IMG/VR virus record: IMGVR_UViG_3300032272_000008
Location: 8,928 to 72,927 of that record
Strand: one strand, 5' to 3'
From: a virus
Lineage: Duplodnaviria; Caudoviricetes
Length of the DNA stretch: 64,000 nucleotides
Positions 4,230 to 39,030 of the stretch are shown here, one piece after another. The notes beneath the pieces were generated by a model, which worked only from the letters and a program-made list of their open reading frames with translations, made no database searches and was not told the DNA's origin. Each line of letters begins with the position of its first letter. The stretch's first letter is position 1. A program made the position numbers and the translations under genes.

Positions 4230-4475
4230 TCAGGTTCCTCGATACTTAGGATGCGTAATTGCAGCCTCTATCATTTCCATTGCAAGCAGGCGGTTCGTAT
4301 GTTGTGACCTTGTAGTGTTCACACACGCCTCTATGTCACCCGGAAGGTATGTGACCTTGATACCAGACGGACCACTGCCGACGTGCTGTCCGCCACGGTT
4401 GAAGCCGAAGGGCCAGGACTCAATCTTCAAGTGTTTTGGATCTATCAATGTCAGGTTCCTCATATTGGGCGTCAC
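4230..4475 (-). CDS. Minimal class I release factor (RF-1/GGQ) domain protein; true start may be TTG 4448
   Basis: IDPKHLKIESW...RGGQHVG...SGIKVTYLPGDI...RSQHTNRLLAMEMI aligns by eye to release-factor domain 3 (GGQHVN...SAVRITHLPTGI...RSQHKNK.KAL). Confidence 0.85.
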   Translation of the reverse strand: MTPNMRNLTLIDPKHLKIESWPFGFNRGGQHVGSGPSGIKVTYLPGDIEACVNTTRSQHTNRLLAMEMIEAAITHPKYRGT

Positions 4476-4581
4476 ACTTTGGGCAACAGTTGTTATCGTT
4501 CAACTCACCGTCACCCCGGCAGTGGTCGCATCCAAAGTCGTCGTCTTCAATTGATACACCCCAGGCTTCGATGTCAGGCAC
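4420..4581 (-). CDS. Small acidic Zn-ribbon protein (53 aa)
   Basis: AGGAG RBS then GTG: MPDIEAWGVSIEDDDFGCDHCRGDGELNDNNCCPKCDAQYEEPDIDRSKTLED; CxxC...CxxC. Fills the gap between two genes; below the ORF-track cutoff. Confidence 0.65.
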   Translation of the reverse strand: MPDIEAWGVSIEDDDFGCDHCRGDGELNDNNCCPKCDAQYEEPDIDRSKTLED

Positions 4582-4590
4582 TTCTGTCTC

Positions 4591-6207
4591 CTATCGTTGA
4601 GCGCACCACTTCTGGCCACGCATTGTTACAATCGTTCGCTTGCCGTTCGAGTATGTTACAATGTGAGAATGGTTCCAGCCGGTCAGTCCGCCTCGATTAT
4701 ATCCTTGATCGCGGGTACAGGAATGCCCCGCAAGATAGATGCCTTCATATATGCCTGCACCATGCTTGTCAGCGATGTTGGCTTTAGGACCCATCTTGGA
4801 AAATGATTTGATGTGCCCCTTTGCCCCGTTGGCACCTTTGTCACCGTGTAGCGCGTTCTCGATGTTGCCGCAAATAACAAATGATCCGGTGTTCGGAATG
4901 AACTGCACATTGTCGAGGTCATAGTCCTGCTTTCTGATGCCCCACTCAGCGGCGAGGAAGTTGTCTTCACGTTTCTTGATTGCTTTGTAGTAGGCAGTCT
5001 GTGCTTCAAGAAAGAACAATGCGTTGGCTGGATCGAAGCGGGTGTCGGCGGTCTTGAGCCACTTCTCGAATGCACGGTCATGATTACTGTCGATGACGAT
5101 GGACTCGCAGAACTCACGCTGAGTGCCTTCTAAGAAGCGTGCTGCATTGATGAACTCACCTTCGACGTTTGACTTGCCGTTGATGTGCATCTTGTACCAG
5201 TGATGCGGGTCCTTGACGTTGTGATGGTTGCGTCGGCGGAAGTCAATCACATCATGGAAGAATTGGTAAACCGGTTTCAACGTATCGAGCATATTATCTT
5301 CAACCATGACGATGCTGCTGAACTCAGAGTCGTATCCCCACGATCCGATCGCCGTATCGTAGTCCAATGTTTCCGCGTGGATGTCGCCCCAGGTAATCGC
5401 CTCAACAATTCCGCTACCCTCTGTAATGGCTCCGTCTGCCACATAGTTGTTCAGATCACAGAACGCACCATCTTTGTCAGCCGCGAGGTGGCGACAGAAG
5501 AAGTCACCTTCACTATCGATCTCAACGAGCACTGCGCCGATGACGTGATGGAATTCGGCTTTGATGCCAGCCTTCTGTTGAAGGTAGTTCGGCAACGTGA
5601 CGGCACCGGTTGTCATGATGATCTTTGGGTCGTCATGGAGCCGCGTGGGGACGCTTTCGAGAACCACCTTCGGGTGAGGAAGGATGGCCCACTTTTCACG
5701 CGTGTACGTCTGAAAACCAGATAGGGGATCGGTTGCAGTCGGTAGCGTGTTCATCTCACCGCAGAAGACCAACCGGCCATCGACATCGAACCGTTCATTG
5801 GAGATGTAGTCGGCGATGTCTGGGTGATAGATCGAGACGATGTTCTTGTCTTCGCGCGCCGTCGCCTGCATGTTGTAGGTGAAGCCGCTGATGTGGATGT
5901 TAGCATTCAAGTGGGCTGCGTATGCTTTAAGGTTCTCCATGAAGCCTTCGTGCACTGCGGTGTGGGCCTGGGCCGATGAGAAGATCCAGGTTTTGACAGC
6001 TGCGCCCCGCCGAGGCTTCTTTAGAGCCACCGGCTTGTTCTGGTTTTTCGTGGTGTAGGAGGCGGTAATTTTACGGTGTCGGCGTTGGAAAGTGACGCGG
6101 GCTATACCTAATCCCGTGGCGGCTTTGTTGAGACTGCCGTACGTCTTGACAGCTTCGAGGACTTCAGCGTCTGACATTTTCGCCAGAACAGGATGTGGAG
6201 CGGCCAT
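4591..6207 (-). CDS. N-terminal HTH plus calcineurin-like metallophosphoesterase, resembling the T5 A1 family
   Basis: Metal-binding motifs WGDIH, FFHD, DSNHD, HGD, GHS; HTH-like YGSLNKAATGLGIARVTF. The A1 similarity is from memory. Confidence 0.7.
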   Translation of the reverse strand: MAAPHPVLAKMSDAEVLEAVKTYGSLNKAATGLGIARVTFQRRHRKITASYTTKNQNKPVALKKPRRGAAVKTWIFSSAQAHTAVHEGFMENLKAYAAHLNANIHISGFTYNMQATAREDKNIVSIYHPDIADYISNERFDVDGRLVFCGEMNTLPTATDPLSGFQTYTREKWAILPHPKVVLESVPTRLHDDPKIIMTTGAVTLPNYLQQKAGIKAEFHHVIGAVLVEIDSEGDFFCRHLAADKDGAFCDLNNYVADGAITEGSGIVEAITWGDIHAETLDYDTAIGSWGYDSEFSSIVMVEDNMLDTLKPVYQFFHDVIDFRRRNHHNVKDPHHWYKMHINGKSNVEGEFINAARFLEGTQREFCESIVIDSNHDRAFEKWLKTADTRFDPANALFFLEAQTAYYKAIKKREDNFLAAEWGIRKQDYDLDNVQFIPNTGSFVICGNIENALHGDKGANGAKGHIKSFSKMGPKANIADKHGAGIYEGIYLAGHSCTRDQGYNRGGLTGWNHSHIVTYSNGKRTIVTMRGQKWCAQR

Positions 6208-6267
6208 GTATTTTGTCCTTCTTATTTCAATGCGTTGGGTATATCACGTCATAGGGCCACCTGCAAG

Positions 6268-7893
6268 CTACAGGTATTTCTGGCCCATCATACGGTCAAT
6301 GTTCTGCTGTCTCACGTCGAGTATTTCCACAAGTTCGGCCTCGATAGAATCCTCAATGACAAGGCGGTATACTGCGATTGGATTGAGCTTTGTAGGTAGC
6401 CACGGTCTCTCTTCGGCCTGATCGTATTCAGAGGGCACTGCTCTAGCAAACTCTGCAATGACAACGACGTCGGATGCGGACAGTTCGATGGCTTCGGACA
6501 TAGACTGGAGGTTTCCAACAATGATTCGACATGTTGGATCAGTCTGGAAACGTACTCGCTCTGCTTCGCGCTGAGAGGTTGACATGCCTCCGTATACTCG
6601 TGCGATAGTCTCAGGCGCAAATGCATCGTAGAACTTCTCAAGGGGTTCTCGGTGGTGATAGAAGACGATGACCTTGGGTTCAGTTTCAAGAATTTCGTTG
6701 ATGACATCGACGACCATATCGACTTTTCTGAGAGCCAATTCACGACGGGCAACTGGCCCTTTCCCTTCGACCATTCCGACATCATCAAGCGTAACGTCTC
6801 CGAGCTTATCTTCGCCACCGGCATTTAACATCTCTCTTAGTTTGTCCAAATTCTGTTGGAAAGCCGAGCGCTCTGTAGCGAGCAGGCGGGATAAACCAGT
6901 CTTTGGCAACAAAATAGTCTGACGTAGTGGAGGCAATTCTTCTAACACGTCGCCCTTCTCGCGGCGTATCATAAAGGTTTTCCTTAGATAGAATTGCAAG
7001 TCCTCTTCGTTTGAAGACCCGCTTGTATCGAGTCCAAACGCGCCCTTGAACGCGTTGCAATACTTGTAGATGTAGCTTTTCCAGTTGGACCCTAAACCGC
7101 TTTTGTCGAGCTTTTCGATCATAGGCCACAGCTGGATTGGTCGTGTAAAGATCGGGGTTCCAGTGAGACATATGAAGTGTTCCTTCGCTTTGATCTTCTG
7201 GTCGCGTTTCTTGCCCTTGACCGGCTTGCCAAAGGTTATCTTTGTGCGCTTGGATTTTGGATTGCCAAGCTTATGTGTCTCATCGCTGATCACGACATCC
7301 CAATCGATCGACGTGAGATAGTCGAAGTGCTTTTCGAGTAGCTCGAAATTGATGACCAGGAAGTCCGTCTCAGGATTGTTCGGTCCTTCGCAGTATCCCA
7401 CACTCATGTCATGAACAAGCCACTCCTTCGCTTCACGGACCCAGCCCACCTTCGCGTTTGCGGGAACAACCGCCAGAACGCGTCGTGGTCGGTCGGTTTC
7501 GGGGAGTAGATTGATGACGCCGAGAGTTTGGATGGTTTTGCCAAGGCGTGGGACATCAGCGTTGAGTGAGCCCCAGCGCGACGCCATGAAGGCGATTCCT
7601 GCTTTTTGATAGTCACGGTATTCCCTTCCTGGTGGTGCGGGCACTTGGATGTCCGAAGTTACCGCAAGGCTCTCAGCGACAGCTTCTCGCTTGATGTTGA
7701 TGAATTTAGAGACAACTATAGCTGTCCCGTCGTCGCAGAACTCCAAAAAAGGAACCACGCGTTCAATCTTACTTGTCCTCGCTTCGTCTCTGATCTTCAA
7801 ATGAAGCCAGCCTTTGCTTTTCAGTTCAAGCAACTTCTCGGGCGATCCGGTCGCAAAGAACCGGCCACCTTTATGTGTGATCTGGAGGGTCAT
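6268..7893 (-). CDS. SNF2-family (SF2) helicase
   Basis: DVPRLGKT, VISDETH, LTGTPI, MIRREK, YDQAEER motifs. Confidence 0.92.
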   Translation of the reverse strand: MTLQITHKGGRFFATGSPEKLLELKSKGWLHLKIRDEARTSKIERVVPFLEFCDDGTAIVVSKFINIKREAVAESLAVTSDIQVPAPPGREYRDYQKAGIAFMASRWGSLNADVPRLGKTIQTLGVINLLPETDRPRRVLAVVPANAKVGWVREAKEWLVHDMSVGYCEGPNNPETDFLVINFELLEKHFDYLTSIDWDVVISDETHKLGNPKSKRTKITFGKPVKGKKRDQKIKAKEHFICLTGTPIFTRPIQLWPMIEKLDKSGLGSNWKSYIYKYCNAFKGAFGLDTSGSSNEEDLQFYLRKTFMIRREKGDVLEELPPLRQTILLPKTGLSRLLATERSAFQQNLDKLREMLNAGGEDKLGDVTLDDVGMVEGKGPVARRELALRKVDMVVDVINEILETEPKVIVFYHHREPLEKFYDAFAPETIARVYGGMSTSQREAERVRFQTDPTCRIIVGNLQSMSEAIELSASDVVVIAEFARAVPSEYDQAEERPWLPTKLNPIAVYRLVIEDSIEAELVEILDVRQQNIDRMMGQKYL

Positions 7894-7942
7894 GTTACCT
7901 TGAATGCACCTAAAGGCACTTTATGTTACCTTGAGGTAACAT
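7892..7942. promoter_or_regulatory. Operator-like inverted repeat plus half-site upstream of the SNF2 gene
   Basis: ATGTTACCT-TG-AGGTAACAT (7923-7942); ATGTTACCTTGA repeated at 7892-7903. Confidence 0.5.
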
Positions 7943-7944
7943 TT

Positions 7945-8229
7945 TCAGTTGGCTGGGAGGATGTAATAGCGCCCTTGGATGCGCTCGACATTGTAGCGCT
8001 TGTAGAACACGCCCACTTTACAAGTCACACGAATGCGTCCCATCCCCGCTGATTCGAGTTTGTGGATGCTGTCACAGCGGTAGCCGTCAGCTACGATTTC
8101 TTTTCTGAGACTTGCGTAGGCTTTGGCAGGGTATGCGAATGCGATCCCCACGATGCAGACGACGCAAACGATGGCCAGAACGACAGCGTAGAAGGGAGGT
8201 TTCGGCCTGACATAATATTTCGATTCCAT
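7945..8229 (-). CDS. Small secreted/membrane protein
   Basis: Hydrophobic N-terminal helix ending AYPAKA, then a two-Cys small domain. Confidence 0.7.
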   Translation of the reverse strand: MESKYYVRPKPPFYAVVLAIVCVVCIVGIAFAYPAKAYASLRKEIVADGYRCDSIHKLESAGMGRIRVTCKVGVFYKRYNVERIQGRYYILPAN

Positions 8230-8250
8230 GGAGGTATTCCTTTCGATAGT

Positions 8251-8523
8251 CTATTCAGATGGACGGGAGATAGCAACCATGAGCTGCGCGTACATACGAG
8301 CCATGCTTGCAGTGAGGGGGTTGTGCGCAGAGTCCACGATCGTTTTCCACGTGGTTTCAGTTACCAGCTCTTTACCGGACTCGATGTGTCGCAGCGTTTG
8401 TTTCACGCCACCGACTTCAATGGTCTGCGTGAGAGCGAAATAGGGGTACAGCAAACGCCGACGCTGGGCAAACAATGCTGCGTTTTGGAGCTGATCGTGT
8501 AGGTCTGTTCGGCGGTCGTCCAT
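8251..8523 (-). CDS. Hypothetical protein
   Basis: Co-oriented ORF in a tightly packed operon. Confidence 0.55.
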   Translation of the reverse strand: MDDRRTDLHDQLQNAALFAQRRRLLYPYFALTQTIEVGGVKQTLRHIESGKELVTETTWKTIVDSAHNPLTASMARMYAQLMVAISRPSE

Positions 8524-8644
8524 GACTTAATACCTTTCTTTGGATTTGTGACACGGAATACCCCGCATCGAGCAACAGTCTTTCACCTTCACTGTATTTG
8601 ATCAAGCCTTGTTTGATGTTTCGGATGATCTGTTCTTCTGACAC
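8417..8644 (-). CDS. Hypothetical protein
   Basis: Start overlaps the upstream stop; long 3' overlap with the next ORF lowers confidence. Confidence 0.45.
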   Translation of the reverse strand: MSEEQIIRNIKQGLIKYSEGERLLLDAGYSVSQIQRKVLSHGRPPNRPTRSAPKRSIVCPASAFAVPLFRSHADH

Positions 8645-8880
8645 TACGGTTGGCTCACTGTCAGATGGTGGGGCACGACGGACTTGCCTGCAAAGGTCAG
8701 GATGATCACCTCACCACGCTTCAGTCTATCCAGTTCGAGTGGGTTCGGGCGATAGGCGAACTCGACGCCATCTCCACCAACATAGCCGGAAATTGTTTTG
8801 CACGGACCAAACTTGGCTTCGTCCCAGTTTCCTGGAGGACCAAATTCTACGTTGTCTTGTTCACGTCGGATGGGTTTCAT
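8644..8880 (-). CDS. Hypothetical phage protein
   Basis: AGGAG RBS before MKPIRREQDNVEFGPPGNWDE. Confidence 0.7.
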   Translation of the reverse strand: MKPIRREQDNVEFGPPGNWDEAKFGPCKTISGYVGGDGVEFAYRPNPLELDRLKRGEVIILTFAGKSVVPHHLTVSQP

Positions 8881-8987
8881 GGGAAACTCCTGTGTCTTGA
8901 GTAAAGGTCGGGAGAGGCAGGTATAGGCGACCAAACCCTCTGCACTCTCCCTTGCGCGAGGGAAAGGAATTAAACCTCGCGCTGTTC

Positions 8988-10505
8988 TTAGATGCCCCAG
9001 GTATCTATGTTGGGATCATCGTGATCGTAATCTGCCGCAGGGTTCTCACGCTTCTGGCGAAGCTGGATGCGGAATTCTTCGACGGCTCGCTCGTCTTCTT
9101 CATGACCAAGGCGTTGCAGTTCCTCTTGATACCGTTCTTCTGCGATGCGCTTGGCTTCTGCTTCGATGGCGCGCTGTTTGTATTCACGCGCTTCAGCTTG
9201 TCGAGCGTCTTCGATTGCAAGATTTTCAGCAATCTCCTTGGCCGCTAATGCGTCAGCTTCATCTCGGCGCTCCACCTCTTCTCGGACTTCAGCTGCAACG
9301 AATTCCGCTTCAATCCTATCTGCGGCTGCCTGCGCGTCTTCCGTGTCGGCGTCGTAGCAGGTACATTCGTCGATATACTCGCCGCAGTCGGAGCAGTCAT
9401 CTTCGTAATCTTGGTAATCTTCGTAATCTTTCTCGTCCAATTGCTCTGCGGAGTTGGCGGGAGTTTCAGTTGCCAATTCAGTTTCGAAGCCTCCGCCAAG
9501 GTCATAGAGAGGTTTCATTCCCTCCGTTGGCAGAGGACTTCTTGAGACAGGATCATCAAGAATCATCATTGGTTCTGGGACAGGACCGTAGTCGTCATTG
9601 AACTCGTCGTCCATGACGATCGTGTGTGTGGTCTCAGGTGCCTGGAAAGCAGAGATGCCCACAGTGCCGCCAGTGATCAATGGAGTGCCCTTGAAGAAGT
9701 CTTTGCACTCTTCCTGCGGAACTTCACCGATGACTTTGTATTCGCACGCACGGCCTTTCTGATAGTTGTAGTCGCGAGGAATGGCACACACATTCATTGG
9801 GTCGATTTCGACCACAACAACTTTGTTCTCTCCGCCACTGCCATAGTGGCTCAGGTATTCAAAGCCACAGAAATGAAGGCCGTTGCTGCACTCTCTGTCA
9901 CGGTCACTGTCAACCGCTGCCCGTTCCATCTTGACGACGAGACCAGGGGCGTTGCTGATCTTGGTGCCGCCAGGACCCTGGTGGATCGACGTGTAGTCAC
10001 CAGCCACTTTCTTGAACGCAATCAGGTTGCCTTCGGAAGTGATTGGAAGCTGTGCGCCTTCCATCCATTCGAACAGTTCTGCGCCGATGTCTGTCTTTGG
10101 GTTCAGCATGATCTTGTTCATGAACTTGGCAAGCGGAGCCACGTCGAGACCTTGGTGAAGGTGCTGCATGATGCGCTCTGCGACGAGGTTGTGGACAGGC
10201 TGGTCGGCATACAGGACACCTTTGTCTGTGACCTTGACGAGACCTTCGGTCAGGCGAGTGATGTACGCGGGGATGTCCAGCAAGTCACGCAGCTTGGAGA
10301 CAGCTTTCTCAATGCGTTGATCTCTGGTGCCATACAGTTGGCGAGCGACGAAGCCCAGCTCTGGTGCAGAGTGCATTTTGTCAATGTCCGTGAGGACTTT
10401 CCTCACTCGGAGGAAATTGATATGTGAAGAAGGAATTATCCGCATGCGGCCTTCGAAGAAGATGCTGATGGATTTGGGAGTGATCGATGCTGGAACTCGG
10501 GTCAT
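8988..10505 (-). CDS. rIIB: rIIB-like protein with long acidic C-terminal extension
   Basis: LPITSEGNLIAFKKV, CSNGLHFC, EIDPMNVCAIPRDYNYQKGRACEYKV; adjacent to rIIA. Confidence 0.9.
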   Translation of the reverse strand: MTRVPASITPKSISIFFEGRMRIIPSSHINFLRVRKVLTDIDKMHSAPELGFVARQLYGTRDQRIEKAVSKLRDLLDIPAYITRLTEGLVKVTDKGVLYADQPVHNLVAERIMQHLHQGLDVAPLAKFMNKIMLNPKTDIGAELFEWMEGAQLPITSEGNLIAFKKVAGDYTSIHQGPGGTKISNAPGLVVKMERAAVDSDRDRECSNGLHFCGFEYLSHYGSGGENKVVVVEIDPMNVCAIPRDYNYQKGRACEYKVIGEVPQEECKDFFKGTPLITGGTVGISAFQAPETTHTIVMDDEFNDDYGPVPEPMMILDDPVSRSPLPTEGMKPLYDLGGGFETELATETPANSAEQLDEKDYEDYQDYEDDCSDCGEYIDECTCYDADTEDAQAAADRIEAEFVAAEVREEVERRDEADALAAKEIAENLAIEDARQAEAREYKQRAIEAEAKRIAEERYQEELQRLGHEEDERAVEEFRIQLRQKRENPAADYDHDDPNIDTWGI

Positions 10506-10591
10506 GATGGTCCTTTCATTGGGTTGTTCTATTCTCTGACACTCTTGTACGAGCGTACCGGGCCGGTGTCTACTTTTAAATAGACGCTTGG

Positions 10592-12823
10592 TTAACTGGC
10601 CCGATCAACTGTCTCGATATACTCAGCCATATGAGACAGCTTATCTCCCTCGACCTTCTTCACGCCACCATAATACTTCTTCGTCAGATCCATGTACTGA
10701 AGCATCGGATAGCGGCTTACCACTTCTTCCCATGCTTTCTCTTTCGTTTCTTCGCTGATAATCTTTGCAAAGCACGCCCGTTCGGCTTCATTCATCAAAA
10801 CAGGAACGTTCAGCTGTTCTGCCAATCGTCTCAGATTATTGACATTGCCTTCACGAGCAAGTTTTCGCTCGATGATTTTCAACTTGATAGTCGCCTCACG
10901 AAGCGCACCACGATGTGTCGGAAGGACACCTTTCTGGATCAGTGCACCACATAGTTCATGTATGTGCGTTTCGCCAGTAAATTCTCCCTTCTCATTCAAC
11001 AGCATGATCAGTTCCGGTGTCATCCGTGACTCGACAACTTCCTGCAAGATAGGACGCAGTCTCTGCCATTTACCACCGGCTCGCTCAATTTTCTTACGAT
11101 GCGTCGCAGGGATCTGAACAATCTTCGTGTCCGCATCGATCTTTCCTACTGCAAGCAGGAAGGCGTGTGCCTGGGCAAAATCATAATCGGACCACATGTA
11201 GTTGAAGTCATTCATTCGGCCACGTGTCGTCTCAATGTAGAGCACGTTGTCATCGTCTGACGAGATGTCAGAAGAAATCCAGTTCATGCTGCTCGGCCCC
11301 GTTATGTGGGCTTCCTTGCATTTCACCGTGGCACGTGTGTACTGTGCCCGCGCTTCCTTCGGAGCTTCTGGCAGCTCAGACACGATGTGCAGCGCACCTT
11401 TATCAGGGCGACCAGCCATGATCATGAAACGTGCTGCTTGACTTGTGTTTGCGTCACACTTCACCCAGACGCAACGCTTGGTGCCGAAGTTGTTTCCGAC
11501 TACGTGGTTGTGACGGAAGTGGTGTGCGATGTTCAAGCCGCGACCACGTGTGTTTTTGCCGTCACCGACGATGTCCAAGTAGATGATGTCTTTGCCAGGA
11601 CGTAGAAAAGCAGTACCGTTATGCGCCCACTTGCCGTCCCAGGCATTCTTGTGCCGTGCCGTCAGACCATTAATCGACTGGCGATCAGTAACTTGCATCA
11701 CACGGCGACCCAACATCTCGCGTTCTTTTACCCTGAAGTGTATTTCGTCCGTCAATTTCCGGCCTTGGAACTTCAATGTGCTGCCCAAGATTCGCGAGAC
11801 GGTGTCGCTGATTGACTTGTCCGCCATGATCTCTTGGTATTTGGCCGTAGCCTCCCACCGTGTTTTACAACTGTTGAACTCCGCTACGAACTGTTCTGTG
11901 ACCTCTTTATATGCGGAGGCAGCGCGCTTAACAATGTTGGCCTGCGTCTCGGGGTCGTATGAGAGGCCTTCACGTGAGGCTGCGATGTCCACTTCACCGA
12001 TAGGGAAGTCGATGATTGTGTTCGCTTGCAGGATGATCTTTGTTGGCTCATCGCAATCTTTGATCGAGTTCGGATCAATTGGGTAGAGGACGCAGCCTTG
12101 GCGAGCGAACGCTTGTGCGCTTGCATAGCGGTCTGGGTTGACGTAGAAGCTCCAGCCATCACCCGTATAGAGTGTTTCGATGTTGCGCTTCTCTTCAAAA
12201 ATTTCTCGTTCACGATCGGGGACGTCGATGTTTGGTTGCACTGGGAAGCCACGAGCAACCTCGCCAGTTTTCTGGGCGAACTCTCTGACGTCCATTGTGT
12301 CAACCGGGAAGGAGACCTCGACGCCTTGCGGTTCCGTAGACGGTGAGCGATCCATGAGGTCGATACATGGGCAGCGCTCGCGGTCGAGGTAGGCGGAGTA
12401 GACGCGGACTTCGCCGTCCAACCAAACAGTGACCGTGAAAGCGTCCGTATACGCATAAGGACTTTTCGAACCAAGGCCCAACATGCCGACTGCATCATTT
12501 GTTTGTTCCTTTGTGCTTTCGAACACAGTCGAGTACAGCCCCATGACTGTCTCATGTGTCATGGAAATGCCGTAGTCCCGGACTGAGAAGTGTGGTTCGA
12601 ATAGGGATGGAAGGTGGACATCAAACGGGACATCGCTCTTGCCTGCTTCAGCGTGGCTGTCGAAAGCGTTCGACCAAAGCTCACGGATGGCGGCGCGCGG
12701 CTTGTCTGAGTACAGGCCGTCGATGAGGATTTTGAAGGCTTTGCCGCTGGCAGCAATTTTGAATTTAGTTGTTTCAGCGGTGCCGATGGTCTGAACGTCA
12801 CGTTCTTCGATATTCATACGCAT
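10592..12823 (-). CDS. rIIA: rIIA-like protein (GHKL ATPase N-terminus); start set at ATG 12823 after AGGA RBS
   Basis: LYSDKPRAAIRELWSNAFDSH, VRDYGISM, GMLGLGSKSPYAY. Confidence 0.9.
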   Translation of the reverse strand: MRMNIEERDVQTIGTAETTKFKIAASGKAFKILIDGLYSDKPRAAIRELWSNAFDSHAEAGKSDVPFDVHLPSLFEPHFSVRDYGISMTHETVMGLYSTVFESTKEQTNDAVGMLGLGSKSPYAYTDAFTVTVWLDGEVRVYSAYLDRERCPCIDLMDRSPSTEPQGVEVSFPVDTMDVREFAQKTGEVARGFPVQPNIDVPDREREIFEEKRNIETLYTGDGWSFYVNPDRYASAQAFARQGCVLYPIDPNSIKDCDEPTKIILQANTIIDFPIGEVDIAASREGLSYDPETQANIVKRAASAYKEVTEQFVAEFNSCKTRWEATAKYQEIMADKSISDTVSRILGSTLKFQGRKLTDEIHFRVKEREMLGRRVMQVTDRQSINGLTARHKNAWDGKWAHNGTAFLRPGKDIIYLDIVGDGKNTRGRGLNIAHHFRHNHVVGNNFGTKRCVWVKCDANTSQAARFMIMAGRPDKGALHIVSELPEAPKEARAQYTRATVKCKEAHITGPSSMNWISSDISSDDDNVLYIETTRGRMNDFNYMWSDYDFAQAHAFLLAVGKIDADTKIVQIPATHRKKIERAGGKWQRLRPILQEVVESRMTPELIMLLNEKGEFTGETHIHELCGALIQKGVLPTHRGALREATIKLKIIERKLAREGNVNNLRRLAEQLNVPVLMNEAERACFAKIISEETKEKAWEEVVSRYPMLQYMDLTKKYYGGVKKVEGDKLSHMAEYIETVDRAS

Positions 12824-12973
12824 TCTGTTGTTCCTTTTCGGTTGGTCATTCGCGTTTCGTTGAAATGAATATGTCAGAACCTTTCCCCTGACGCAATTCC
12901 TTGATATTGACATAGTTAATAGGACGTGACATTGTAGGCACAACCCTTCCAAAACCTTATAAGGTGTACTTTT
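12824..12973. promoter_or_regulatory. Divergent promoter region
   Basis: AT-rich gap between divergent genes, with TTGACA near 12907. Confidence 0.5.
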
Positions 12974-13951
12974 ATGACAACTCTCGCCCCACATCTCGTT
13001 GTAACGGAACTTGCCGACAGCACGGACTGCGACCGGGTTGTAGATCCTGGAAAATATTCTGTTGTCACGCCTGGAAATGGGCCTAGTGGTGACAATTTCA
13101 TCATAGAAGTGCTGAAGACAACCATTTCCGGCATTAGTGTTGTGATGCAGCGCGCCTTCGCACAGAGCACCAACGGCGTCTATGTACGCTTCTTGAATGC
13201 TGGTGCGTGGACCACCTGGACACAAGCGGGCGGCGCAGCCGCTGCTTCAAGTGTTTTCACCTTCGATCCCGACCTGCTAACCAGATCTATGGCTGCTCCG
13301 AGTTGGTCATCAGCCACAGCGGCTACTACACACCTGGGAGCTATTTTAGATAACTCCAACTTTACAGGTCTTGAAGACGACGCAATTCCTTATCGTGCGC
13401 AACCGAATATTAGACTGCAACCTACAGCAGGTAATTTCAACGGCGGCAACATCTACACCAGAGATATGGGATTGTTTCGAGCGCAGGGTTTCCGTACCCG
13501 TCAGCGATTTGCTGTAGGTGCGACCCTTCAACCGAATCATCGTATTTTTGTTGGACTATCTTCTGGCGGCATTGTTCTGAATAACCCGACAACAAATGAC
13601 AATTTGATCGGATTGTATTTGGACGCTAATGCTGATCCTGATTGGCAAATTCTATCCAACGCTACAGGCACATCCCAAACACCAGTAAACGGTGTAACAG
13701 GATTTACAGCGGTTGCAGGACAGTTCTTAGAGGTTTGTTTCTATTCTGAGGCTGGTGGCGCAGGGATTGAGTATAAGGTTACCAATCTTGCGGACTCAGC
13801 GGAATACTCTGGAGAAATAACTTCGGAACTACCGACTGCAACGCCAGCAAGCGGGGAGTCGCTCAGTTGCACCACTGAGACCAACAACGGCGACCACGCC
13901 TCAAACGTAGCAGAAGCTTTCTTCCACTATTCGATGGCGCAGGCACTTTAA
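12974..13951 (+). CDS. Tail-fibre-related protein with N-terminal knob-like domain
   Basis: GKY...NGP...IIEV...VMQRAF...VYVRFL...WTTWTQ matches the pyocin/tail-fibre knob pattern; beta-rich C-terminus. Confidence 0.55.
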   Translation: MTTLAPHLVVTELADSTDCDRVVDPGKYSVVTPGNGPSGDNFIIEVLKTTISGISVVMQRAFAQSTNGVYVRFLNAGAWTTWTQAGGAAAASSVFTFDPDLLTRSMAAPSWSSATAATTHLGAILDNSNFTGLEDDAIPYRAQPNIRLQPTAGNFNGGNIYTRDMGLFRAQGFRTRQRFAVGATLQPNHRIFVGLSSGGIVLNNPTTNDNLIGLYLDANADPDWQILSNATGTSQTPVNGVTGFTAVAGQFLEVCFYSEAGGAGIEYKVTNLADSAEYSGEITSELPTATPASGESLSCTTETNNGDHASNVAEAFFHYSMAQAL

Positions 13952-15012: not shown

Positions 15013-15184
15013 GCTTGCAATCGAGCAATGTTCTCTCTGCTACGTACACTGAGAAATATCCCACAGCTGCGACGCAGCCCCATTCCAAAAGCTCAGGAAG
15101 TGACATCGGACCCAACAGAAATGTTCCCACAAGGACGCCTGCAAGACTTGCAATTACCAATGCGATTATAAGGTGCTTCAGCAT
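14972..15184 (-). CDS. Small two-TM membrane protein
   Basis: Two hydrophobic segments; coupled to the holin stop codon. Confidence 0.65.
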   Translation of the reverse strand: MLKHLIIALVIASLAGVLVGTFLLGPMSLPELLEWGCVAAVGYFSVYVAERTLLDCKPSGNQTPDQHPPK

Positions 15185-15591
15185 TATTCTGCCTTGTCGT
15201 CGTGAGTATGGGTTTCTGTTTTACCGTCGTTATTCTTATGAGTGTGCGGTGCGGGGCCGGGGACACTGTTCTTGTAATGGTTGCGGGCGGCTTCAGCTAC
15301 CCAATCGAGAGCCTGTGTTCCGACATAACCACCAATGCCTGCGGCGATCAGTGCCCAATCCGGATTGAGCTTGAGCATGACCTGCGCGATCATGTAACCA
15401 GAGAACCCTGATACAAGTGCGTGTCCGATTAGTAGACCAAATTTAGGAGCCTGACCTGACTTGAGGTAGCTATCCAGGTAGCGCGCAATGCCACCCATAA
15501 TCGCCAGAATTACCCAAGCAAGTTCCGGCCACGATTCAAGAAATCTCATGGTGGGTGCTTTATCAAATGTTGCTGCCACAGCGTTCTGCAT
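15184..15591 (-). CDS. LydA-like phage holin
   Basis: WVILAIMGGIARYL...ALVSGFSGYM...AAGIGGYVGTQAL; about three TM segments and a charged tail. Confidence 0.8.
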   Translation of the reverse strand: MQNAVAATFDKAPTMRFLESWPELAWVILAIMGGIARYLDSYLKSGQAPKFGLLIGHALVSGFSGYMIAQVMLKLNPDWALIAAGIGGYVGTQALDWVAEAARNHYKNSVPGPAPHTHKNNDGKTETHTHDDKAE

Positions 15592-16045: not shown

Positions 16046-16277
16046 CGTCAAGTGGAACTGGACCAAAATAACCAAAGCTACACTCCCGCCCGACGATCGT
16101 TACTTCATGACATGGTCGGAAGAAGACATACCCCCCGTGGCGGTGTGTCGCACCTACAAATTCGACGGGGGTGATCGCTATATCCTCTATGCCGATGAAC
16201 TTTTGTGCGATGTCGCACCAGAAGGTCCTGTTGGGGCAACCCATTGGGCAGAGTACCCGGAAGGACCTACAGATTGA
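16035..16277 (+). CDS. Hypothetical protein (DUF551-like pattern)
   Basis: W...LPP...ATHWAEYPEGP pattern; start overlaps the upstream stop. Confidence 0.55.
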   Translation: MADNVKWNWTKITKATLPPDDRYFMTWSEEDIPPVAVCRTYKFDGGDRYILYADELLCDVAPEGPVGATHWAEYPEGPTD

Positions 16278-16801
16278 CAACCATCCTCTTGACTGAAGAT
16301 ATGATCGGCTGGGATGACCAGCTGACATTCGGCGACCAGAAGCATGCTTGCTCGTTCGAGAAAGTTTTCGTTGATGCCAACGGTGTCTGGGCTTTTGCCG
16401 GGTCACCTTCAAATGCCTTGCGCGCTATTAAAGGCATCGTGGCGGGAGAATTCTTCACTGAAATTCCCGGCCTCATGGAGTCGGCGGTCGGCGGCGAGAA
16501 TCCGTTTGAGATCTTCCGTATGTGGGAAGGCTTGGACGGCGAGCGTCACATCCGGTACTGGTCGGAAGACAACATCTATGGCTTCACGCCTCCGTTACCG
16601 ATGGCGCTGGGCACAGGTTCCTCTTTTGTTCTCGGTGCGTACTATGGTGCGGAACGGAATGTGACCGTCGCGATGAAGTTGGCAGTCGAGCACGACGCAT
16701 ACTCTGGTGGTGAAGTTCATGTGGACAGCACACTGGCGATGTGGGACAAGCACTTGTTGGCGAAGAAACGCCGCAAGGAAGCTGCGTTGTCTACAGAATA
16801 A
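16274..16801 (+). CDS. HslV/proteasome-beta-like Ntn threonine peptidase
   Basis: TTG start overlapping the upstream TGA gives M-T-T-I (N-terminal Thr); DDQ, EKV, FAGS, LGTGS, DAYSGG. Confidence 0.8.
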   Translation: MTTILLTEDMIGWDDQLTFGDQKHACSFEKVFVDANGVWAFAGSPSNALRAIKGIVAGEFFTEIPGLMESAVGGENPFEIFRMWEGLDGERHIRYWSEDNIYGFTPPLPMALGTGSSFVLGAYYGAERNVTVAMKLAVEHDAYSGGEVHVDSTLAMWDKHLLAKKRRKEAALSTE

Positions 16802-30597: not shown

Positions 30598-30602
30598 TTC
30601 AG

Positions 30603-32660: not shown

Positions 32661-32666
32661 TTCATT

Positions 32667-33456: not shown

Positions 33457-33896
33457 CAGATCTTCGCTCCGTGATTTCGAGCCTCTACAAGCAGCTCATC
33501 GATCGTGATTTCAAGCATTTCAGCCACATCATCGCCGGGGTAGCCCATATCCAAGGCCAAAAAGCAGATCGCGGTGTCGAGACCGTCAACATATTTCTTT
33601 CCACCCTGTGCCATCGTTGCTCGAACCTGATCCAGCTTGTCACAGAGCGCGGGATCAGCGAAAAAAGCGTACGCCGACAGAAGGTCGGGGCTTTTTGGGG
33701 GTATCGACGATGTGGGCAGGATCATCGGTGCTCCAACGCCCGGTAATAGTGCCTTCTTGATTTTTGGTGTTTCGTTTGCCATGCAAACGTTCTCCTTTCG
33801 TTCTTTTCTTGTGTTCTTGTCCACTGACGGGGAACCTGTTGGTCCCCCGCCTGAAGATGTGAGCGTCAGTTCTACGACCTTGGGGTGTAGTCCCAA
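33456..33896 (-). CDS. Hypothetical protein (start probably internal, MANETPK)
   Basis: AAGGAG precedes the internal ATG. Confidence 0.55.
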   Translation of the reverse strand: MGLHPKVVELTLTSSGGGPTGSPSVDKNTRKERKENVCMANETPKIKKALLPGVGAPMILPTSSIPPKSPDLLSAYAFFADPALCDKLDQVRATMAQGGKKYVDGLDTAICFLALDMGYPGDDVAEMLEITIDELLVEARNHGAKI

Positions 33897-34159
33897 TTGT
33901 AGCGCTCTCGCCAGAGTTCGTCTTGTTGATTATGGATGTCATCAGGGTCTTCCTTCACAAAGTATGCCATGTGGTTCCCCTTCTGATCCTGTTGAATCAT
34001 TTGGATGATCGAACCACCTTCTTGGTCGCGGGCATAGCCAGGATTGTGTTTCCCATCATCTGGATTCACCGTGAGGATGATCTCAGAGTTCAGAAGAAAC
34101 TTGTCGGAGTTAAGTGCCTCACGGAGCTGTGTGGCGTTATGGGTCAGTTTGAGTAACAT
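33872..34159 (-). CDS. Hypothetical protein
   Basis: Co-oriented ORF. Confidence 0.5.
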   Translation of the reverse strand: MLLKLTHNATQLREALNSDKFLLNSEIILTVNPDDGKHNPGYARDQEGGSIIQMIQQDQKGNHMAYFVKEDPDDIHNQQDELWRERYNWDYTPRS

Positions 34160-34570
34160 TTTCTGTGTCTTTCATTTGCATGTTGCGCTTCGGATGCAGT
34201 GTCGTAACCCGAATGATCAAATCAGGCAAGGACGGAGGTGATACATGGTAAACGGCTGCAATTTGTCCCCGGCCACTGACACAGAATAGCTGTGTGCGTC
34301 CTACACGCCTGTCGCGCAGCTTGAGCGAACCGTATGGCCCACCCACGCGTTTACAGTCGCTCTGCATGTCCAAGATGAGTGGCGGGTAGTATCTATATTC
34401 CGTCTTCATGGCGGTCTGCTGCGCTATTATAGAATACGCCAACTGTTGCTGGCCGTAATAAAGAGCACCCAGCGCAAGCAGCGCCAGAAAGGCCCCAGCG
34501 AACACCGCACAGTCCGAAGGTGTCTTCAAAAAACCCAGCCAGGACACAGGTCCTTGATCTTTATTATTCA
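34137..34570 (-). CDS. Membrane-anchored hypothetical protein
   Basis: GGAGG RBS before MNNKDQG; one TM segment. Confidence 0.6.
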
Positions 34571-34696
34571 TTGTGATATTACCCCTCCATTGATTGTTGC
34601 GCATTCCGTTCGACAATCTCACAACCGTTGTTCGCCCACAACAAGCAGATAAAAACAGGGTTAAGAACGTCCTGACAATTAGGAGCATTCATACCC

Positions 34697-36373
34697 GTGG
34701 TCGCTACAACTCGTTCCGTAAACATTTCTGACTTCAACATCGCCAACGGCGATCTTCCATCTTGGGCACATCCCGAGGTCCATTACTGGTATCCAGAGTG
34801 GCGTAAGATCCGCGACTGCGTTGCAGGTGAGCGTGCGATCAAAGACGCAGGCACTGACTATCTCGCGCAGCTCGAATCTATGGAAGGCTCAGATTACAAC
34901 TCGTACCTGGATCGGGCGACGTTCTACAACTTCACTGGCCGCACAGTTGAAGCCCTGACTGGTTCCTTGATGCGCCGCCGTCCGGTGATCGACGACCTGC
35001 CCACAAAACTCAACGAACGTCTAAAAGTTGTCTCCAGGGAAAAACACCCATTCCACATGTTCTCCACGATGATTGCTCGCGAGAACATCCAGATGGGACG
35101 CGTCGGCGTCCTGGTCGATCTCCCGCGTACTGAGACCACACAGCCTAAACCATACCTGTGCTCGTACACGTGCGAGAACATTCTGGATTGGGAAGAAGAC
35201 ATCGTCAACGACGAGCTGGTCCTGACAAAGGTCGTGCTCCGTGAACAGAAGCGTGTCCGCAACACCGGACAAGCCACCGGCAACTCTTCTACGATGGAGA
35301 CCACGTATGTTCCTCGCTATCGTGAACTGTCGTTAGAAGAAGGCGCACAAGGTACGCACGTCTACGTCCAGCGGATCTATGAGCGTGATGACACTGCCGT
35401 AGACTTCGAACTGGTCGAGGCAAATCTTGTTGATACGATTACCCCCATGCGGCAAGGCGTGCCGCTGGATTTCATTCCATTCTGCATTCTCGGTCCACGA
35501 GAAAGCCGGATGATGGTTGAGAAGCCTCCGATGATGGACATCGCGCGTCTCAATCTATCTCACTACCAATCATACGCGTGGTTGGAGCATGGGCGCTTCT
35601 TCACCGGGTTCCCGATCTACTACGTCGAAGCACCTTCAGGTGGCGACGGCAGCGAAGCAGAATTCGAGCTTGGTTCGAGCAACGTCTGGGTAACACCAGC
35701 CGGTGCGAAGCCAGGACTGTTGGAGATGAACGGCCAAGGGCTGAAGTTCCTCGCCGACGCGTTGGACCAAAAAGAATCTCAGGCAGCGAGCCTGGGTGGC
35801 CGAATGATTGGTATCCGTACGCAAGCTGTGGCTGAATCTGACAACGCGTTGAAGATGACTGAGCGCAACGAACAATCTGTTCTGTTGCAGGTCGCGATGG
35901 CGCTCGATGCCCAGATGTCGAAGGTCCTGCAATGGTGGGCGTTCCTGTCCGGCGTATCGTTGAAAGAAGCCGAAAAGATTGTCCTTGAATACAACAAGGA
36001 TTTTCTGTTCGACACTCCAGGCGCTCGCGAGTTCCGTGCAATTCACTCAATGTATCAAGATGGGGTTATCCCTGTCGATGTGATATACTCGTACTTCAAG
36101 AAGTCTTCTCTCATCCCGGATTGGATGTCACTGGAAGAATTCAAGAAGCAGCTGGATCGGGTTGAAAACTTCCCGAACAATCCAGACATCGCGGCGAAGC
36201 AGGAAGGCTTTCCTGACGCCAAGACGCAGATCGCAGTGGCCGAAGCGGAGAAAGATCGCAAAGCCACTGAGAAAGCCGCCGAAGCGACGGCAAAAGCAGC
36301 GAAGGAGGCCGCAGACAGACAACCTGTAGGAGTTCCACCGCAACAAGTACCGCCCAACGGCAATGGGCAATAG
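34697..36373 (+). CDS. Portal protein (DUF4055-like)
   Basis: WRKIRDCVAGERAIK...YLDRATFYNFTGRTV...GRVGVLVD...LNLSHYQSYA. Confidence 0.9.
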   Translation: MVATTRSVNISDFNIANGDLPSWAHPEVHYWYPEWRKIRDCVAGERAIKDAGTDYLAQLESMEGSDYNSYLDRATFYNFTGRTVEALTGSLMRRRPVIDDLPTKLNERLKVVSREKHPFHMFSTMIARENIQMGRVGVLVDLPRTETTQPKPYLCSYTCENILDWEEDIVNDELVLTKVVLREQKRVRNTGQATGNSSTMETTYVPRYRELSLEEGAQGTHVYVQRIYERDDTAVDFELVEANLVDTITPMRQGVPLDFIPFCILGPRESRMMVEKPPMMDIARLNLSHYQSYAWLEHGRFFTGFPIYYVEAPSGGDGSEAEFELGSSNVWVTPAGAKPGLLEMNGQGLKFLADALDQKESQAASLGGRMIGIRTQAVAESDNALKMTERNEQSVLLQVAMALDAQMSKVLQWWAFLSGVSLKEAEKIVLEYNKDFLFDTPGAREFRAIHSMYQDGVIPVDVIYSYFKKSSLIPDWMSLEEFKKQLDRVENFPNNPDIAAKQEGFPDAKTQIAVAEAEKDRKATEKAAEATAKAAKEAADRQPVGVPPQQVPPNGNGQ

Positions 36374-36382
36374 GAGAAGATC

Positions 36383-36631
36383 ATGAACAAGGATTTTGAA
36401 GATGGCAGCATACCAAGCGAACAGCCAGAGCGGAAAGTTCCGCGCAAGGCAAGAAAAACTGCGCCGAAAAAAGAAGCGCGTAGTGAAGACGAAAAAGTAG
36501 CAGATGCCATCGTTAACCTTGATCTCGAAACAGACTTGGTGAAAGCCCTGGCTTGGGCTAAACGAATGAGGCCATCCGATCGAGCGAAGATGCTTCGTCT
36601 TTCAGGTGAACACCAAGCCAAGCTCCTTTAA
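36383..36631 (+). CDS. Hypothetical protein
   Basis: AGGAG RBS. Confidence 0.65.
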   Translation: MNKDFEDGSIPSEQPERKVPRKARKTAPKKEARSEDEKVADAIVNLDLETDLVKALAWAKRMRPSDRAKMLRLSGEHQAKLL

Positions 36632-36702
36632 CCGGGAGCCGAATCACGCCGCGCTCCGTCTGACACGTAAGGAGTAGGCTCAAGCTACCGTGGGGTACAC
36701 AC

Positions 36703-37215
36703 ATGCAGAACGCTTTTACGCGCTTCGTCGCCCGCCGCCTGACGGGCTGGGGAGCCAACATCGTAGAGAAGCACCAACCTGATTTCGTTATCGGAGATCC
36801 CGACGATCCCTGTCTGATCCGTTGGTGCATTTTCCCGCGCAACCGGTTCCTCAACGTCTACCTTCATCTATTCCTTCGGTCGGACGACCGCGTACTCCAT
36901 GATCATCCCTGGTGGTCCTGGTCGCTCGCCTTGTCACAGGTAGCGTATGAAATCCACTACCCGATGGACGGTCCACGTGAAGATCACTTGCGGATCGTGA
37001 ATTTTGGTGACTTCATACACCGTCCCGCGAAATTCACACATAGAATGGTCCTTCGTGTGAGAGAAGATGTGCACCAACCATTCATGACGTTGTTCATCAC
37101 CGGCCCCCGCCTACGGGAATGGGGTTTCTGGTGCGACAAAGGGACGCGGTTTGTCCCATGGCAAGAGTTCACCAAGAACGGTGTTCCAGGAGAAAGAGGT
37201 AAAGGCTGTGATTGA
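36703..37215 (+). CDS. Cupin-fold protein
   Basis: YLHLFLRSD.RVLHDHPW...YE...HR...TLFITGP. Confidence 0.7.
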   Translation: MQNAFTRFVARRLTGWGANIVEKHQPDFVIGDPDDPCLIRWCIFPRNRFLNVYLHLFLRSDDRVLHDHPWWSWSLALSQVAYEIHYPMDGPREDHLRIVNFGDFIHRPAKFTHRMVLRVREDVHQPFMTLFITGPRLREWGFWCDKGTRFVPWQEFTKNGVPGERGKGCD

Positions 37216-37381
37216 TACCTCCAAAATCTCCCGCGTGGAAGTGATCGACCACCGAAGCGTATCCAAAACCTGCGGTCGGGTGTTCGTGGCGTGGAACGTA
37301 AGCGCTGACATGTCCGTACAGGATGATGGGCGCACTCTCAAAGTCTTCGTAAATTACAAGAAAAAGGAAAGCACAAGATGA
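37208..37381 (+). CDS. Small conserved phage protein
   Basis: SRVEVIDH...QDDGRTLKVFV pattern. Confidence 0.65.
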   Translation: MIDTSKISRVEVIDHRSVSKTCGRVFVAWNVSADMSVQDDGRTLKVFVNYKKKESTR

Positions 37382-37827
37382 AACAACTCGACATTTTCAT
37401 GGACCCGAATGTCCCACTCGACCACTTCCCCTCGTATCAAACGGAAGGCGCGGCAGGCTTCGACCTGTCCGCGTGGCTTCCGACTGGAAGCATCATCATC
37501 CCCGCGTACGAAAGCCGGATCGTCAACACTGGCATCTACATGATGATCCCTGAAGGACACGAAGTGCAGATCCGATCGCGCTCTGGCCTCGCAGGCAAAC
37601 ACGCGTTGTTCGTCTTGAACTCGCCGGGGACAATCGACTGCGACTACCGTGGTGAGATCCGTGTGATCCTCACAAACATGTACACGCAGAAGTACGTAGT
37701 CGCATCTGGTGACCGGATCGCACAAGGCGTTCTGAAGGAAGCACCGCAGGCAAACCTCGTACGGGTCAACTCGATCCGCCACGACACAGCAAGAGGGGAA
37801 CACGGCCTTGGCTCTACCGGAAAATAG
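37378..37827 (+). CDS. dut: Trimeric dUTPase
   Basis: AAGFDL, RSGLA, GTIDCDYRGE, GDRIAQ, RGEHGLGSTG. Confidence 0.97.
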   Translation: MKQLDIFMDPNVPLDHFPSYQTEGAAGFDLSAWLPTGSIIIPAYESRIVNTGIYMMIPEGHEVQIRSRSGLAGKHALFVLNSPGTIDCDYRGEIRVILTNMYTQKYVVASGDRIAQGVLKEAPQANLVRVNSIRHDTARGEHGLGSTGK

Positions 37828-37859
37828 CAAGCAAGCAGTCGGGACCGGAAAAAACTCGA

Positions 37860-38029
37860 TGAGGCTCAACCAAGCGACGATGCAGAAGATTGTGGAGCAT
37901 TGGATGGAGACACGTTTCCTGAACACTGCACATCAAGAAGTGCTCGTCACACAAGTGAAATCTACGGTCGAGGGCAACGCGCACGCGTTCGATATCGACT
38001 TCCATTGGCAGGAGCCAGTACCTAAATGA
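37860..38029 (+). CDS. Small hypothetical protein
   Basis: MRLNQATMQKIVEHW; start approximate. Confidence 0.5.
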
Positions 38030-38310
38030 AAGCACTCGAAACCTTAGTAGGCATCGGCGTGATGACGCTCGTCTACGTCTGCATCATGGCGATGGTCACG
38101 CTCGGCGTACTCGTTGTCTCGAACCTGATGCTCTATCTCGCGCCGAACATCATTGGCCCTGGCATGGAAGTGTTCGGATCAGTCGGCGAATTCTTCCCGT
38201 CCTTCGCGGTATTGATCACGCTCCTGGCAGCATGCGTCGCGGTGGGCACGTCGGCCATCCACTTCGTCGAAGACTTCTTCGTCGATCAAGCGGAGAAGTC
38301 CGATGGGTAG
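38026..38310 (+). CDS. Membrane protein (2 TM)
   Basis: Two long hydrophobic stretches; ATGA overlap. Confidence 0.7.
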   Translation: MKALETLVGIGVMTLVYVCIMAMVTLGVLVVSNLMLYLAPNIIGPGMEVFGSVGEFFPSFAVLITLLAACVAVGTSAIHFVEDFFVDQAEKSDG

Positions 38311-38536
38311 ACGTGTCACAGCAATCTTTGTCGCAGAATCGCGTCAAGGAAAACACACCGTCCTGGATACCGACGAAGAACTAATCGTCGTGTTTCCTTA
38401 CGGGACGGAGCGTGTTGGCATGCGTTTCGATCGATTGATCATAACCTTTCGCCACAACAGCGAGAGACAAGCCCATTGGATTCGCCGCAACAGAATGGGA
38501 TTGAAGCCTGACGGTCTGCTGATTGAAACCTTTTAA
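38303..38536 (+). CDS. Small hypothetical protein
   Basis: GGAG RBS. Confidence 0.55.
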   Translation: MGRRVTAIFVAESRQGKHTVLDTDEELIVVFPYGTERVGMRFDRLIITFRHNSERQAHWIRRNRMGLKPDGLLIETF

Positions 38537-38589
38537 CCATGAGTGACATAGCCACTTGATTTTCATTTTGGCTGTGTTACAAAGATCTC

Positions 38590-39030
38590 GAAGACGTTGA
38601 AGCGTCATTGAACAAGAACGGATACGCCGGGGCAGTACCGGCCATCTCCACCACAAGTCTACGGAGGAACAGAAGGCAGTAGCCGTACCAGATCGAAATA
38701 GCTCAAGAAGCTCTGTGCATATGTGATACGGCCACTGCGGCGAAAGCCAAGCATGCCCGACACCGTATAATCACCTCAACGTGTATTTCATGCTGACCGC
38801 GCGCTCTGCCGTAGACTTCTGATGGGGATGAAATAGGTTCGACCGTTTTGGGTAGTGGAGTGGAGTTTTCCGGGTGATCTCGTCATAGATCGGACTGCTT
38901 AGTTGCAAACGACAACGAGGCTCTCTTACTCGCCGCATAGCCGCGAGTGGCGCAATGGCAAGCGTAGCAACAGAAGCTCTCACTGAGAGCAGGCCAAGGG
39001 TCGCCCACCATAAATGTTTGGTGGGAATTT
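38590..39030 (+). ncRNA. ssrA: Circularly permuted two-piece tmRNA, tag (A)ANDNEALLLAA*; outer ends approximate
   Basis: T-arm GCCGG-GGCAGTA-CCGGC (38626-38642), 3' acceptor CATCTCC-A-CCA ending 38653, 5' acceptor GGGGATG at 38824 (G3.U70), D-loop AAATAGGTTCGAC, resume codon GCA 38905, TAG 38938-38940. Confidence 0.95.

Follow-up and report, generated by a model that had tools for sequence, protein, structure and literature searches.

A two-piece tmRNA, a bare GGQ-domain protein and an HslV-like peptidase on a siphovirus contig: probably three accessory genes with separate histories

The DNA analysed here (64,000 nt; hereafter the window, to which all positions refer unless another genome is named) comprises bases 8928–72927 of the linear, 72,927-bp IMG/VR viral contig IMGVR_UViG_3300032272_000008. 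It carries a transfer-messenger RNA (tmRNA) gene (ssrA), a gene for a small protein consisting of a bare GGQ domain, that is, domain 3 of a peptide chain release factor (RF), which we call the mini-RF, and a gene for an N-terminal-Thr (Ntn) peptidase related to HslV. A first-pass annotation of the window had proposed that the three genes together form a phage toolkit for ribosome rescue. The analysis presented below instead makes it probable that they are translation and proteolysis accessory genes with separate evolutionary histories, assembled in a large alphaproteobacterial siphovirus, and not the parts of one rescue kit.

The contig is a fragment (completeness 37% by CheckV) of the genome of a large siphovirus of Alphaproteobacteria that belongs to the DSS3P8/Lacusarx/phiCbK supergroup. 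Its portal protein is 36–46% identical to the best-ranked cultured matches and its PolA about 40–42%, and by these two proteins the cultured relatives are phages DSS3P8, MD18, RcXuper, RpAliso, Mesorhizobium phage Cp1R7A-A1, Erythrobacter phages XM05 and vB_EliS-L02, Sphingobium phage Lacusarx, Citromicrobium phage RXM, Microcystis phage Mwe-JY26 and the phiCbK-like phages of Caulobacter and Brevundimonas. Two uncultured relatives are also referred to below: a 74.5-kb IMG/VR fragment (G004, completeness 39%), which is syntenic over the entire window with proteins 30–69% identical, and a relative from a Tara Oceans sample that is about 90% identical in DNA (the Tara relative). PolA was not useful as a query for further relatives in IMG/VR, as it gave matches of no more than 39% identity on T7-like contigs of about 43 kb.

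The tmRNA gene occupies 472 nt at 38560–39031 (+). The first-pass annotation had described a complete permuted tmRNA at 38.6–39.0 kb, and this was confirmed by ARAGORN, which returned a two-piece (circularly permuted) gene, and by two Rfam models, RF04321 tmRNA_permuted (75.1 bits, cut-off 47) and RF01849 alpha_tmRNA (71.2 bits, cut-off 50; match starting at 38535). The acceptor piece (38590–38653, +) precedes the coding piece; it was located by covariance-model alignment and by reading the sequence directly. It contains the T-arm (38626–38642, +; direct reading) and the 3′ acceptor strand CAUCUCC (38643–38649, +), followed by the discriminator A plus CCA (ACCA, 38650–38653). It is separated from the coding piece by an intervening segment of about 170 nt (38654–38823, +), an insert relative to both Rfam models, which is expected to be cut out on maturation. 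The coding piece, including the 3′ helices (38824–39031, +; ARAGORN, Rfam and direct reading), begins with the 5′ acceptor strand GGGGAUG (38824–38830, +). As GGGGAUG stands opposite CAUCUCC, the third pair of the 7-bp acceptor stem is a G:U pair, formed by G3 and U70 (38647). A G:U third acceptor pair is the alanine identity element in both tRNA-Ala and tmRNA. The tag reading frame (38905–38940, +) starts at a GCA resume codon (38905), encodes ANDNEALLLAA and ends with UAG (38938–38940); the frame thus opens with alanine, is closed by a stop codon and encodes a C-terminus made of a hydrophobic residue followed by two alanines. The intervening segment explains why the gene is longer than those of sphingomonad hosts (about 336–346 nt; ARAGORN on 74 host loci) and of related phages (344–440 nt). 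The first-pass annotation had seen no smpB in the window, which was borne out on the whole 72.9-kb contig and extends to all 15 of the complete cultured relatives (0/15 with SmpB), so that SmpB would have to be provided by the host.

The tag sequence of the tmRNA points to a particular group of hosts. A DNA pattern search for ANDNEA-[L/F]-x-L-AA-stop found at least 120 chromosomal loci, almost all from Sphingomonadales among the matches listed, and in 70 of the 74 tmRNA genes extracted from pattern-matched loci ARAGORN read the tag ANDNEALALAA, to which the phage tag is identical at 10 of 11 residues. The tags of the related phages, in contrast, have 14–21 residues, are phage-specific and are markedly unlike one another (such as ANDNDVVTAEVRLAA of Lacusarx and ANINNAPMEMAIAA of DSS3P8). 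The tmRNAs of these relatives have diverged too far to be found by BLAST and were detected with the Rfam models only; a blastn search of 50,697 phage records with the tmRNA region gave no match. A recent capture of the gene from a host was rejected, because blastn against 80 sphingomonad and 13 phage loci aligned only core segments of 27–40 nt. In a FastTree phylogeny of 336 trimmed columns the window tmRNA is sister to the chromosomal tmRNAs of sphingomonads and apart from the other phage tmRNAs (SH-like support 0.96), although its branch is long and its identity to every other sequence in the tree is about 50%. With moderate confidence, these comparisons suggest either an old, separate acquisition from a sphingomonad host or convergence of the tag on that of the host. 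Because the tag is a near-copy of the Sphingomonadales tag and the tree places the RNA with sphingomonads, the host of the phage is probably a sphingomonad.

An accessory island that separates the portal gene from the scaffold gene (36703–44755, +) harbours the tmRNA gene, together with genes for a cysteine-dioxygenase-like protein (phrog_4786), a dUTPase, a thymidylate synthase and a 'virion structural protein' of phrog_1645, and several unassigned open reading frames (ORFs). The counterpart of the island in G004 is 3.6 kb shorter, mostly unrelated and without a tmRNA. Whereas the tmRNA genes of the relatives lie beside tRNA genes or arrays, that of the window has no tRNA array next to it; no tRNA gene was found anywhere in the 72.9 kb of the contig, against five in the syntenic G004, and if this phage has a tRNA array, it must be located in the portion of the genome that was not sampled. 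Phage tmRNAs have been published for the Bxz1 group of mycobacteriophages, Bacillus phage G and DS6A (PMC4131195), and for Lacusarx, which has 24 tRNA genes (PMC5648845). The window tmRNA resembles those of the phiCbK-like, Lacusarx, DSS3P8-like and Erythrobacter phages in being a complete two-piece molecule whose tag ends in AA, and in coming from a phage that has no smpB; it differs from them in its short, host-like tag, in its placement with Sphingomonadales, in its longer intervening segment and in its location in a portal–scaffold island away from any tRNA array.

The mini-RF gene lies on the other strand (4230–4448, −), in the replication module between the phrog_1745 gene and polA, with its stop codon 1 nt ahead of the PolA start codon. 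The ORF as originally listed (4230–4475, −; 81 residues) matches the Pfam RF-1 domain (PF00472) at 34.7 bits against a cut-off of 35, and phrog_20323 ('RF-1 domain peptide chain release factor'); its close homologues P0001–P0003 carry precomputed PF00472 matches, and the protein contains the motifs GGQHV and SQHTN. The bare GGQ domain reported by the first-pass annotation at 4.2–4.5 kb is real, but of the suggested range of about 72–81 residues only the lower end stands. The true start is most likely a TTG codon at 4448, giving 72 residues, because the Tara relative has an ATG at exactly this codon, 10 nt after the phrog_1745 gene, and the closest homologues are 70–72 residues long. Between the window and the Tara relative the mini-RF shows a synonymous divergence (dS) of 0.81 and a ratio of nonsynonymous to synonymous divergence (dN/dS) of 0.07, indicative of strong purifying selection on the window copy. 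Compared with the Tara contig, the window contains a 127-nt insertion (4449–4590, −), which changes the mini-RF start codon from ATG to TTG and creates, between the phrog_1745 gene and the mini-RF, a 53-residue ORF with two CxxC pairs (4420–4581, −) that overlaps the 5′ end of the mini-RF gene. A conserved partner gene beside the mini-RF was considered and rejected, since the upstream genes differ at every other locus examined and the CxxC ORF is a private insertion.

An AlphaFold2 (AF2) model of the mini-RF (mean confidence, pLDDT, 89.5) was matched by Foldseek to domain 3 of RF2 and RF1 (TMq 0.66–0.73), and the sequence alignment covers only residues of about 217–278 of RF1 or 234–295 of RF2. 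The codon-recognition domains 2 and 4 of RF1, RF2 and PrfH are not present. The protein therein resembles ArfB (YaeJ) and ICT1, which have a codon-independent GGQ domain without these decoding domains; unlike them, however, it has neither the linker nor the basic C-terminal helix with which ArfB probes the mRNA channel, as the helix of the model ends at residue 64 and only eight residues follow. ArfB without its last 10 residues loses ribosome binding (reviewed in PMC8012679). In sequence the mini-RF is closer to domain 3 of RF1 and RF2 than to ArfB, and its lone domain of about 70 residues, GGQ and SQH motifs and domain-3 fold are those of other stand-alone RF-1-domain proteins of phages.

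These proteins form a sizeable family. Exhaustive HMMER searching gave 205 cluster representatives at E ≤ 1e-3, most of 65–95 residues, and in an alignment of 50 members G20 was invariant and G19, Q21, S48 and Q49 were at least 90% conserved. Carriers span 38 to 390 kb, most being of about 40–60 kb and several having integrases; a homologue 74% identical to the window protein adjoins the integrase of a temperate phage of about 36 kb, and the three closest IMG/VR carriers have no tmRNA, peptidase or PolA. The mini-RF family is phage-borne and moves between unrelated phages as a single gene. Longer GGQ proteins were seen in Pseudomonas Otagovirus phages, which are without tmRNA.

The third gene encodes a 175-residue Ntn peptidase of the proteasome-beta/HslV superfamily, which includes the beta-proteobacterial proteasome homologue (BPH), at 16274–16801 (+). 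The listed ORF (16205–16801) is over-extended upstream: a TTG start at 16274 overlaps the preceding stop codon (TTGA), follows a Shine–Dalgarno-like GGAAGGA and gives a product beginning M-TTILL, and the 92%-identical homologue P0005 likewise has 175 residues. The HslV-like Thr peptidase that the first-pass annotation had located at 16.3–16.8 kb is supported by a match to phrog_1040 ('peptidase HslV family', 3e-12), by a family profile and by the fold, in the face of a negative Pfam search (no match, Pfam Proteasome included). In an alignment of the window protein with 17 phage homologues (n = 18), M1, D14, K30, G113 and G115 are invariant and T2 is at least 90% conserved; we take these positions to be the Thr1, Asp17, Lys33 and Gly-Ser-Gly constellation of HslV and the proteasome beta subunit, with G-T-G in the window protein where HslV and the proteasome have G-S-G. 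A single-sequence phmmer search of the PDB sequences gave no relevant match, and it took the family profile to reach BPH (5ovu, 6.6e-12), HslV (1m4y, 1.7e-10) and beta5 subunits. The AF2 model (pLDDT 89) was matched by Foldseek with a probability of 1.0 to 20S beta subunits, BPH and HslV, at a sequence identity to the solved structures of about 16–22%. The protein therefore shares with HslV and BPH (5ovu, 5ovs) the Ntn fold, a Thr right after the Met and equivalents of the Asp, Lys and Gly-x-Gly residues, and differs from both in the G-T-G, in a Lys/Arg-rich C-terminal helix (residues 153–174 of the model) and in the lack of a Pfam Proteasome match. As with BPH, no ATPase adjoins the gene. No HslU/ClpX-type ATPase (AAA_2 domain) was found on the 72.9-kb contig, which is incomplete, and no ClpP was found on it either. 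The protein looks like an active Ntn protease.

The distribution of the three genes was then compared. Among the 15 complete cultured relatives, alpha_tmRNA was matched in 13 (E ≤ 0.01; 10 of these score above the Rfam cut-off), Mwe-JY26 and RXM being the exceptions; the peptidase (phrog_1040) was likewise found in 13, in all but Mwe-JY26 and Lacusarx. The RF-1 domain was found in none of the 15, 13 of which bear a tmRNA. Weak phrog_20323 matches in phiCbK and XM05 (E about 0.01) were rejected on inspection as spurious frames without GGQ; Kikimora gave a further weak match (E 0.029). G004 has the peptidase, an unrelated ORF in the slot between polA and the phrog_1745 gene where the window has the mini-RF, and no tmRNA even though its portal-to-scaffold region is covered. 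When carriers of the mini-RF were gathered from IMG/VR with an 11-sequence family alignment, four of 50 records other than the window contained a tmRNA above the Rfam cut-off (G024, G034, G039 and G048), three contained the peptidase (G030, G047 and G048) and one contained both; among the records that are at least 90% complete, the tmRNA was present in 1 of 25. Members of the peptidase family were also seen in phages of E. coli and Pseudomonas that have genomes of about 150 kb and no tmRNA. The tmRNA is a long-standing trait of this phage supergroup, and the peptidase an old, vertically inherited gene of the lineage. In the Erythrobacter phages vB_EliS-L02 (75719–77047) and XM05 (149004–150260) a close tmRNA–peptidase pair was seen at the end of a 12-tRNA array.

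The first-pass annotation read the three genes together: ribosomes that stall when host RNases or anticodon nucleases act in defence, or when mRNA is destroyed, would be freed by the tmRNA and mini-RF, and the tagged products would be cleared by the peptidase. We consider this unlikely. Co-occurrence was the test that the first-pass annotation had itself proposed, and it gave an independent, patchy distribution of the kind named beforehand as counting against one: 46 of the 50 mini-RF carriers are without tmRNA, 47 are without the peptidase, and 24 of the 25 records at least 90% complete are without tmRNA, and the RF-1 domain is missing from all 13 tmRNA-bearing phages among the complete cultured relatives. 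The genes are also not adjacent, as the first-pass annotation had remarked: they are separated by 12 kb and 22 kb, belong to different modules and are not all encoded on the same strand. The proposed route from the -AA tag to the peptidase is weak as well, as the contig encodes no AAA+ unfoldase that could feed tagged proteins to it and the peptidase family is present in tmRNA-less phages.

Several observations nevertheless favour a joint role and so weigh against the reading of three separate genes. All three are intact and conserved in the Tara relative (one sample). They recur together in G048 (232,051 bp), which shows no portal homology to the window phage and is unrelated to it, with the HslV-like gene at 173.2–173.8 kb, the mini-RF about 5 kb away (about 178.6 kb) and, at 209.6–210.0 kb, a tmRNA of the standard one-piece type. 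In three of the four records besides the window that have both tmRNA and mini-RF, all from large phages, these two genes are 4–8 kb apart, and in the two Erythrobacter phages the tmRNA is adjacent to the peptidase, about 0.5 kb away on the same strand (18–110 kb in all other relatives). The tmRNA count of 4/50 among mini-RF records probably exceeds the phage background, and there may be a weak functional coupling of the genes, given that the counts pool all genome sizes; calls of absence on fragments such as the contig (37% complete) and G004 (39%) are weak. The separate capture of the window tmRNA is tentative, resting as it does on some 336 columns, about 50% identity and a long branch, and whereas the data show the identities, the catalytic motifs, the folds, selection on the mini-RF and the distributions, the activity and physiological role of each of the three genes are putative. 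Genes for RF-1-domain proteins, Pth and tmRNA have also been described together in mycobacterial and mycobacteriophage tRNA arrays (PMC5966550), but the window mini-RF, unlike those coding sequences, sits in a replication module. Large phages tend to accumulate translation-support genes, and the co-occurring records and the Erythrobacter pair are cases of large phages collecting such genes.

For the phage tmRNA, the host AlaRS would be expected to attach alanine by way of the G3:U70 pair, and host SmpB and EF-Tu to bring the RNA to ribosomes stalled at the 3′ ends of mRNAs, where it would add ANDNEALLLAA; since this is a near-copy of the host tag, the products would go to the host proteases that recognise ssrA tags. 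The most likely role of the RNA would be to keep up the capacity for trans-translation while the phage is breaking down host nucleic acids and switching off host transcription. The converse possibility is that the RNA acts against the host, competing for SmpB and stalled ribosomes and thereby altering or blunting host tagging. With no smpB of its own the phage RNA must draw on that of the host, the tags of related phages are markedly divergent, 'counteracting host tmRNA-related tagging' was suggested by the authors of the Lacusarx study (PMC5648845), and SmpB titration has been proposed for the tmRNA of phage DS6A, which consists of a tRNA-like domain only (PMC4131195). However, the window RNA does not have the form of a decoy: its tag frame is full, starting at an alanine resume codon, ending at a stop codon and giving a tag that finishes in LAA, and since the tag matches the host consensus at 10 of 11 residues, normal tagging and degradation are to be expected. 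This complete and host-like frame makes a decoy role less likely, and we give an anti-host function of the window tmRNA little credence.

For the mini-RF, the most likely activity is hydrolysis of peptidyl-tRNA through its GGQ loop, in the peptidyl-transferase centre of complexes with an open A site. Because it is without any known ribosome-anchoring element, it would probably need a high concentration, a split 50S substrate or a partner. To our knowledge, no one has shown what a GGQ domain does without any anchoring element. One speculative extension, which we think has only a small chance of being correct, is that the tail-less GGQ proteins of 65–95 residues constitute a class of peptidyl-tRNA release factor that is peculiar to phages and depends on neither a stop codon nor a sensor of the mRNA channel; such factors could act on 50S–peptidyl-tRNA after ribosome splitting, or on ribosomes whose A site is left vacant by tRNA-cleaving defences. 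Were this so, the phage would pair such a factor with a host-mimicking tmRNA and sustain translation under attack. Least probable of all is that the mini-RF is no rescue factor but a GGQ-domain mimic that disturbs host termination or PrmC, the GGQ methyltransferase, or a mobile gene without benefit here: the missing anchoring elements, the failure of tail-truncated ArfB to bind ribosomes, the variability of the slot that it occupies between polA and the phrog_1745 gene, and the moron-like position beside an integrase in the temperate phage would suit this, and a PrmC decoy would itself need a conserved GGQ, but near-invariance of GGQ and SQ(H) over 50 members and a dN/dS of 0.07 fit retained hydrolysis better.

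The tmRNA, mini-RF and peptidase are of known kinds and open no new system, both protein families being already listed in PHROGs (phrog_20323 and phrog_1040). Their interest lies elsewhere: in a stand-alone GGQ family whose catalytic motif is conserved across phages of widely different genome size, and in the host prediction that the host-like tag provides for an uncultured marine or sediment phage. Set against the divergent tags of the relatives, the window tag also offers a natural comparison for asking whether phage tags must match the proteolysis adaptors of the host.

Some further features were observed. The mini-RF-bearing IMG/VR megaphage G052 (388,485 bp) contains seven sub-threshold matches to RF00023, the four strongest of 74–87 nt, with matches at 84–85 kb and 96–97 kb; these could be mini-tmRNAs consisting only of a tRNA-like domain, or odd tRNAs. 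On the replication side the window encodes, besides the T7-type PolA and the phrog_1745 protein, a Dda-like helicase, an SNF2 helicase and a large primase-like protein, and its virion genes comprise those for the large terminase subunit, portal, scaffold, major head protein, tape-measure protein and tail proteins. A holin-like gene is found near the peptidase gene (15184–15591, −), and an rIIB/rIIA pair (8988–13225, −) is present in this siphovirus of Alphaproteobacteria.

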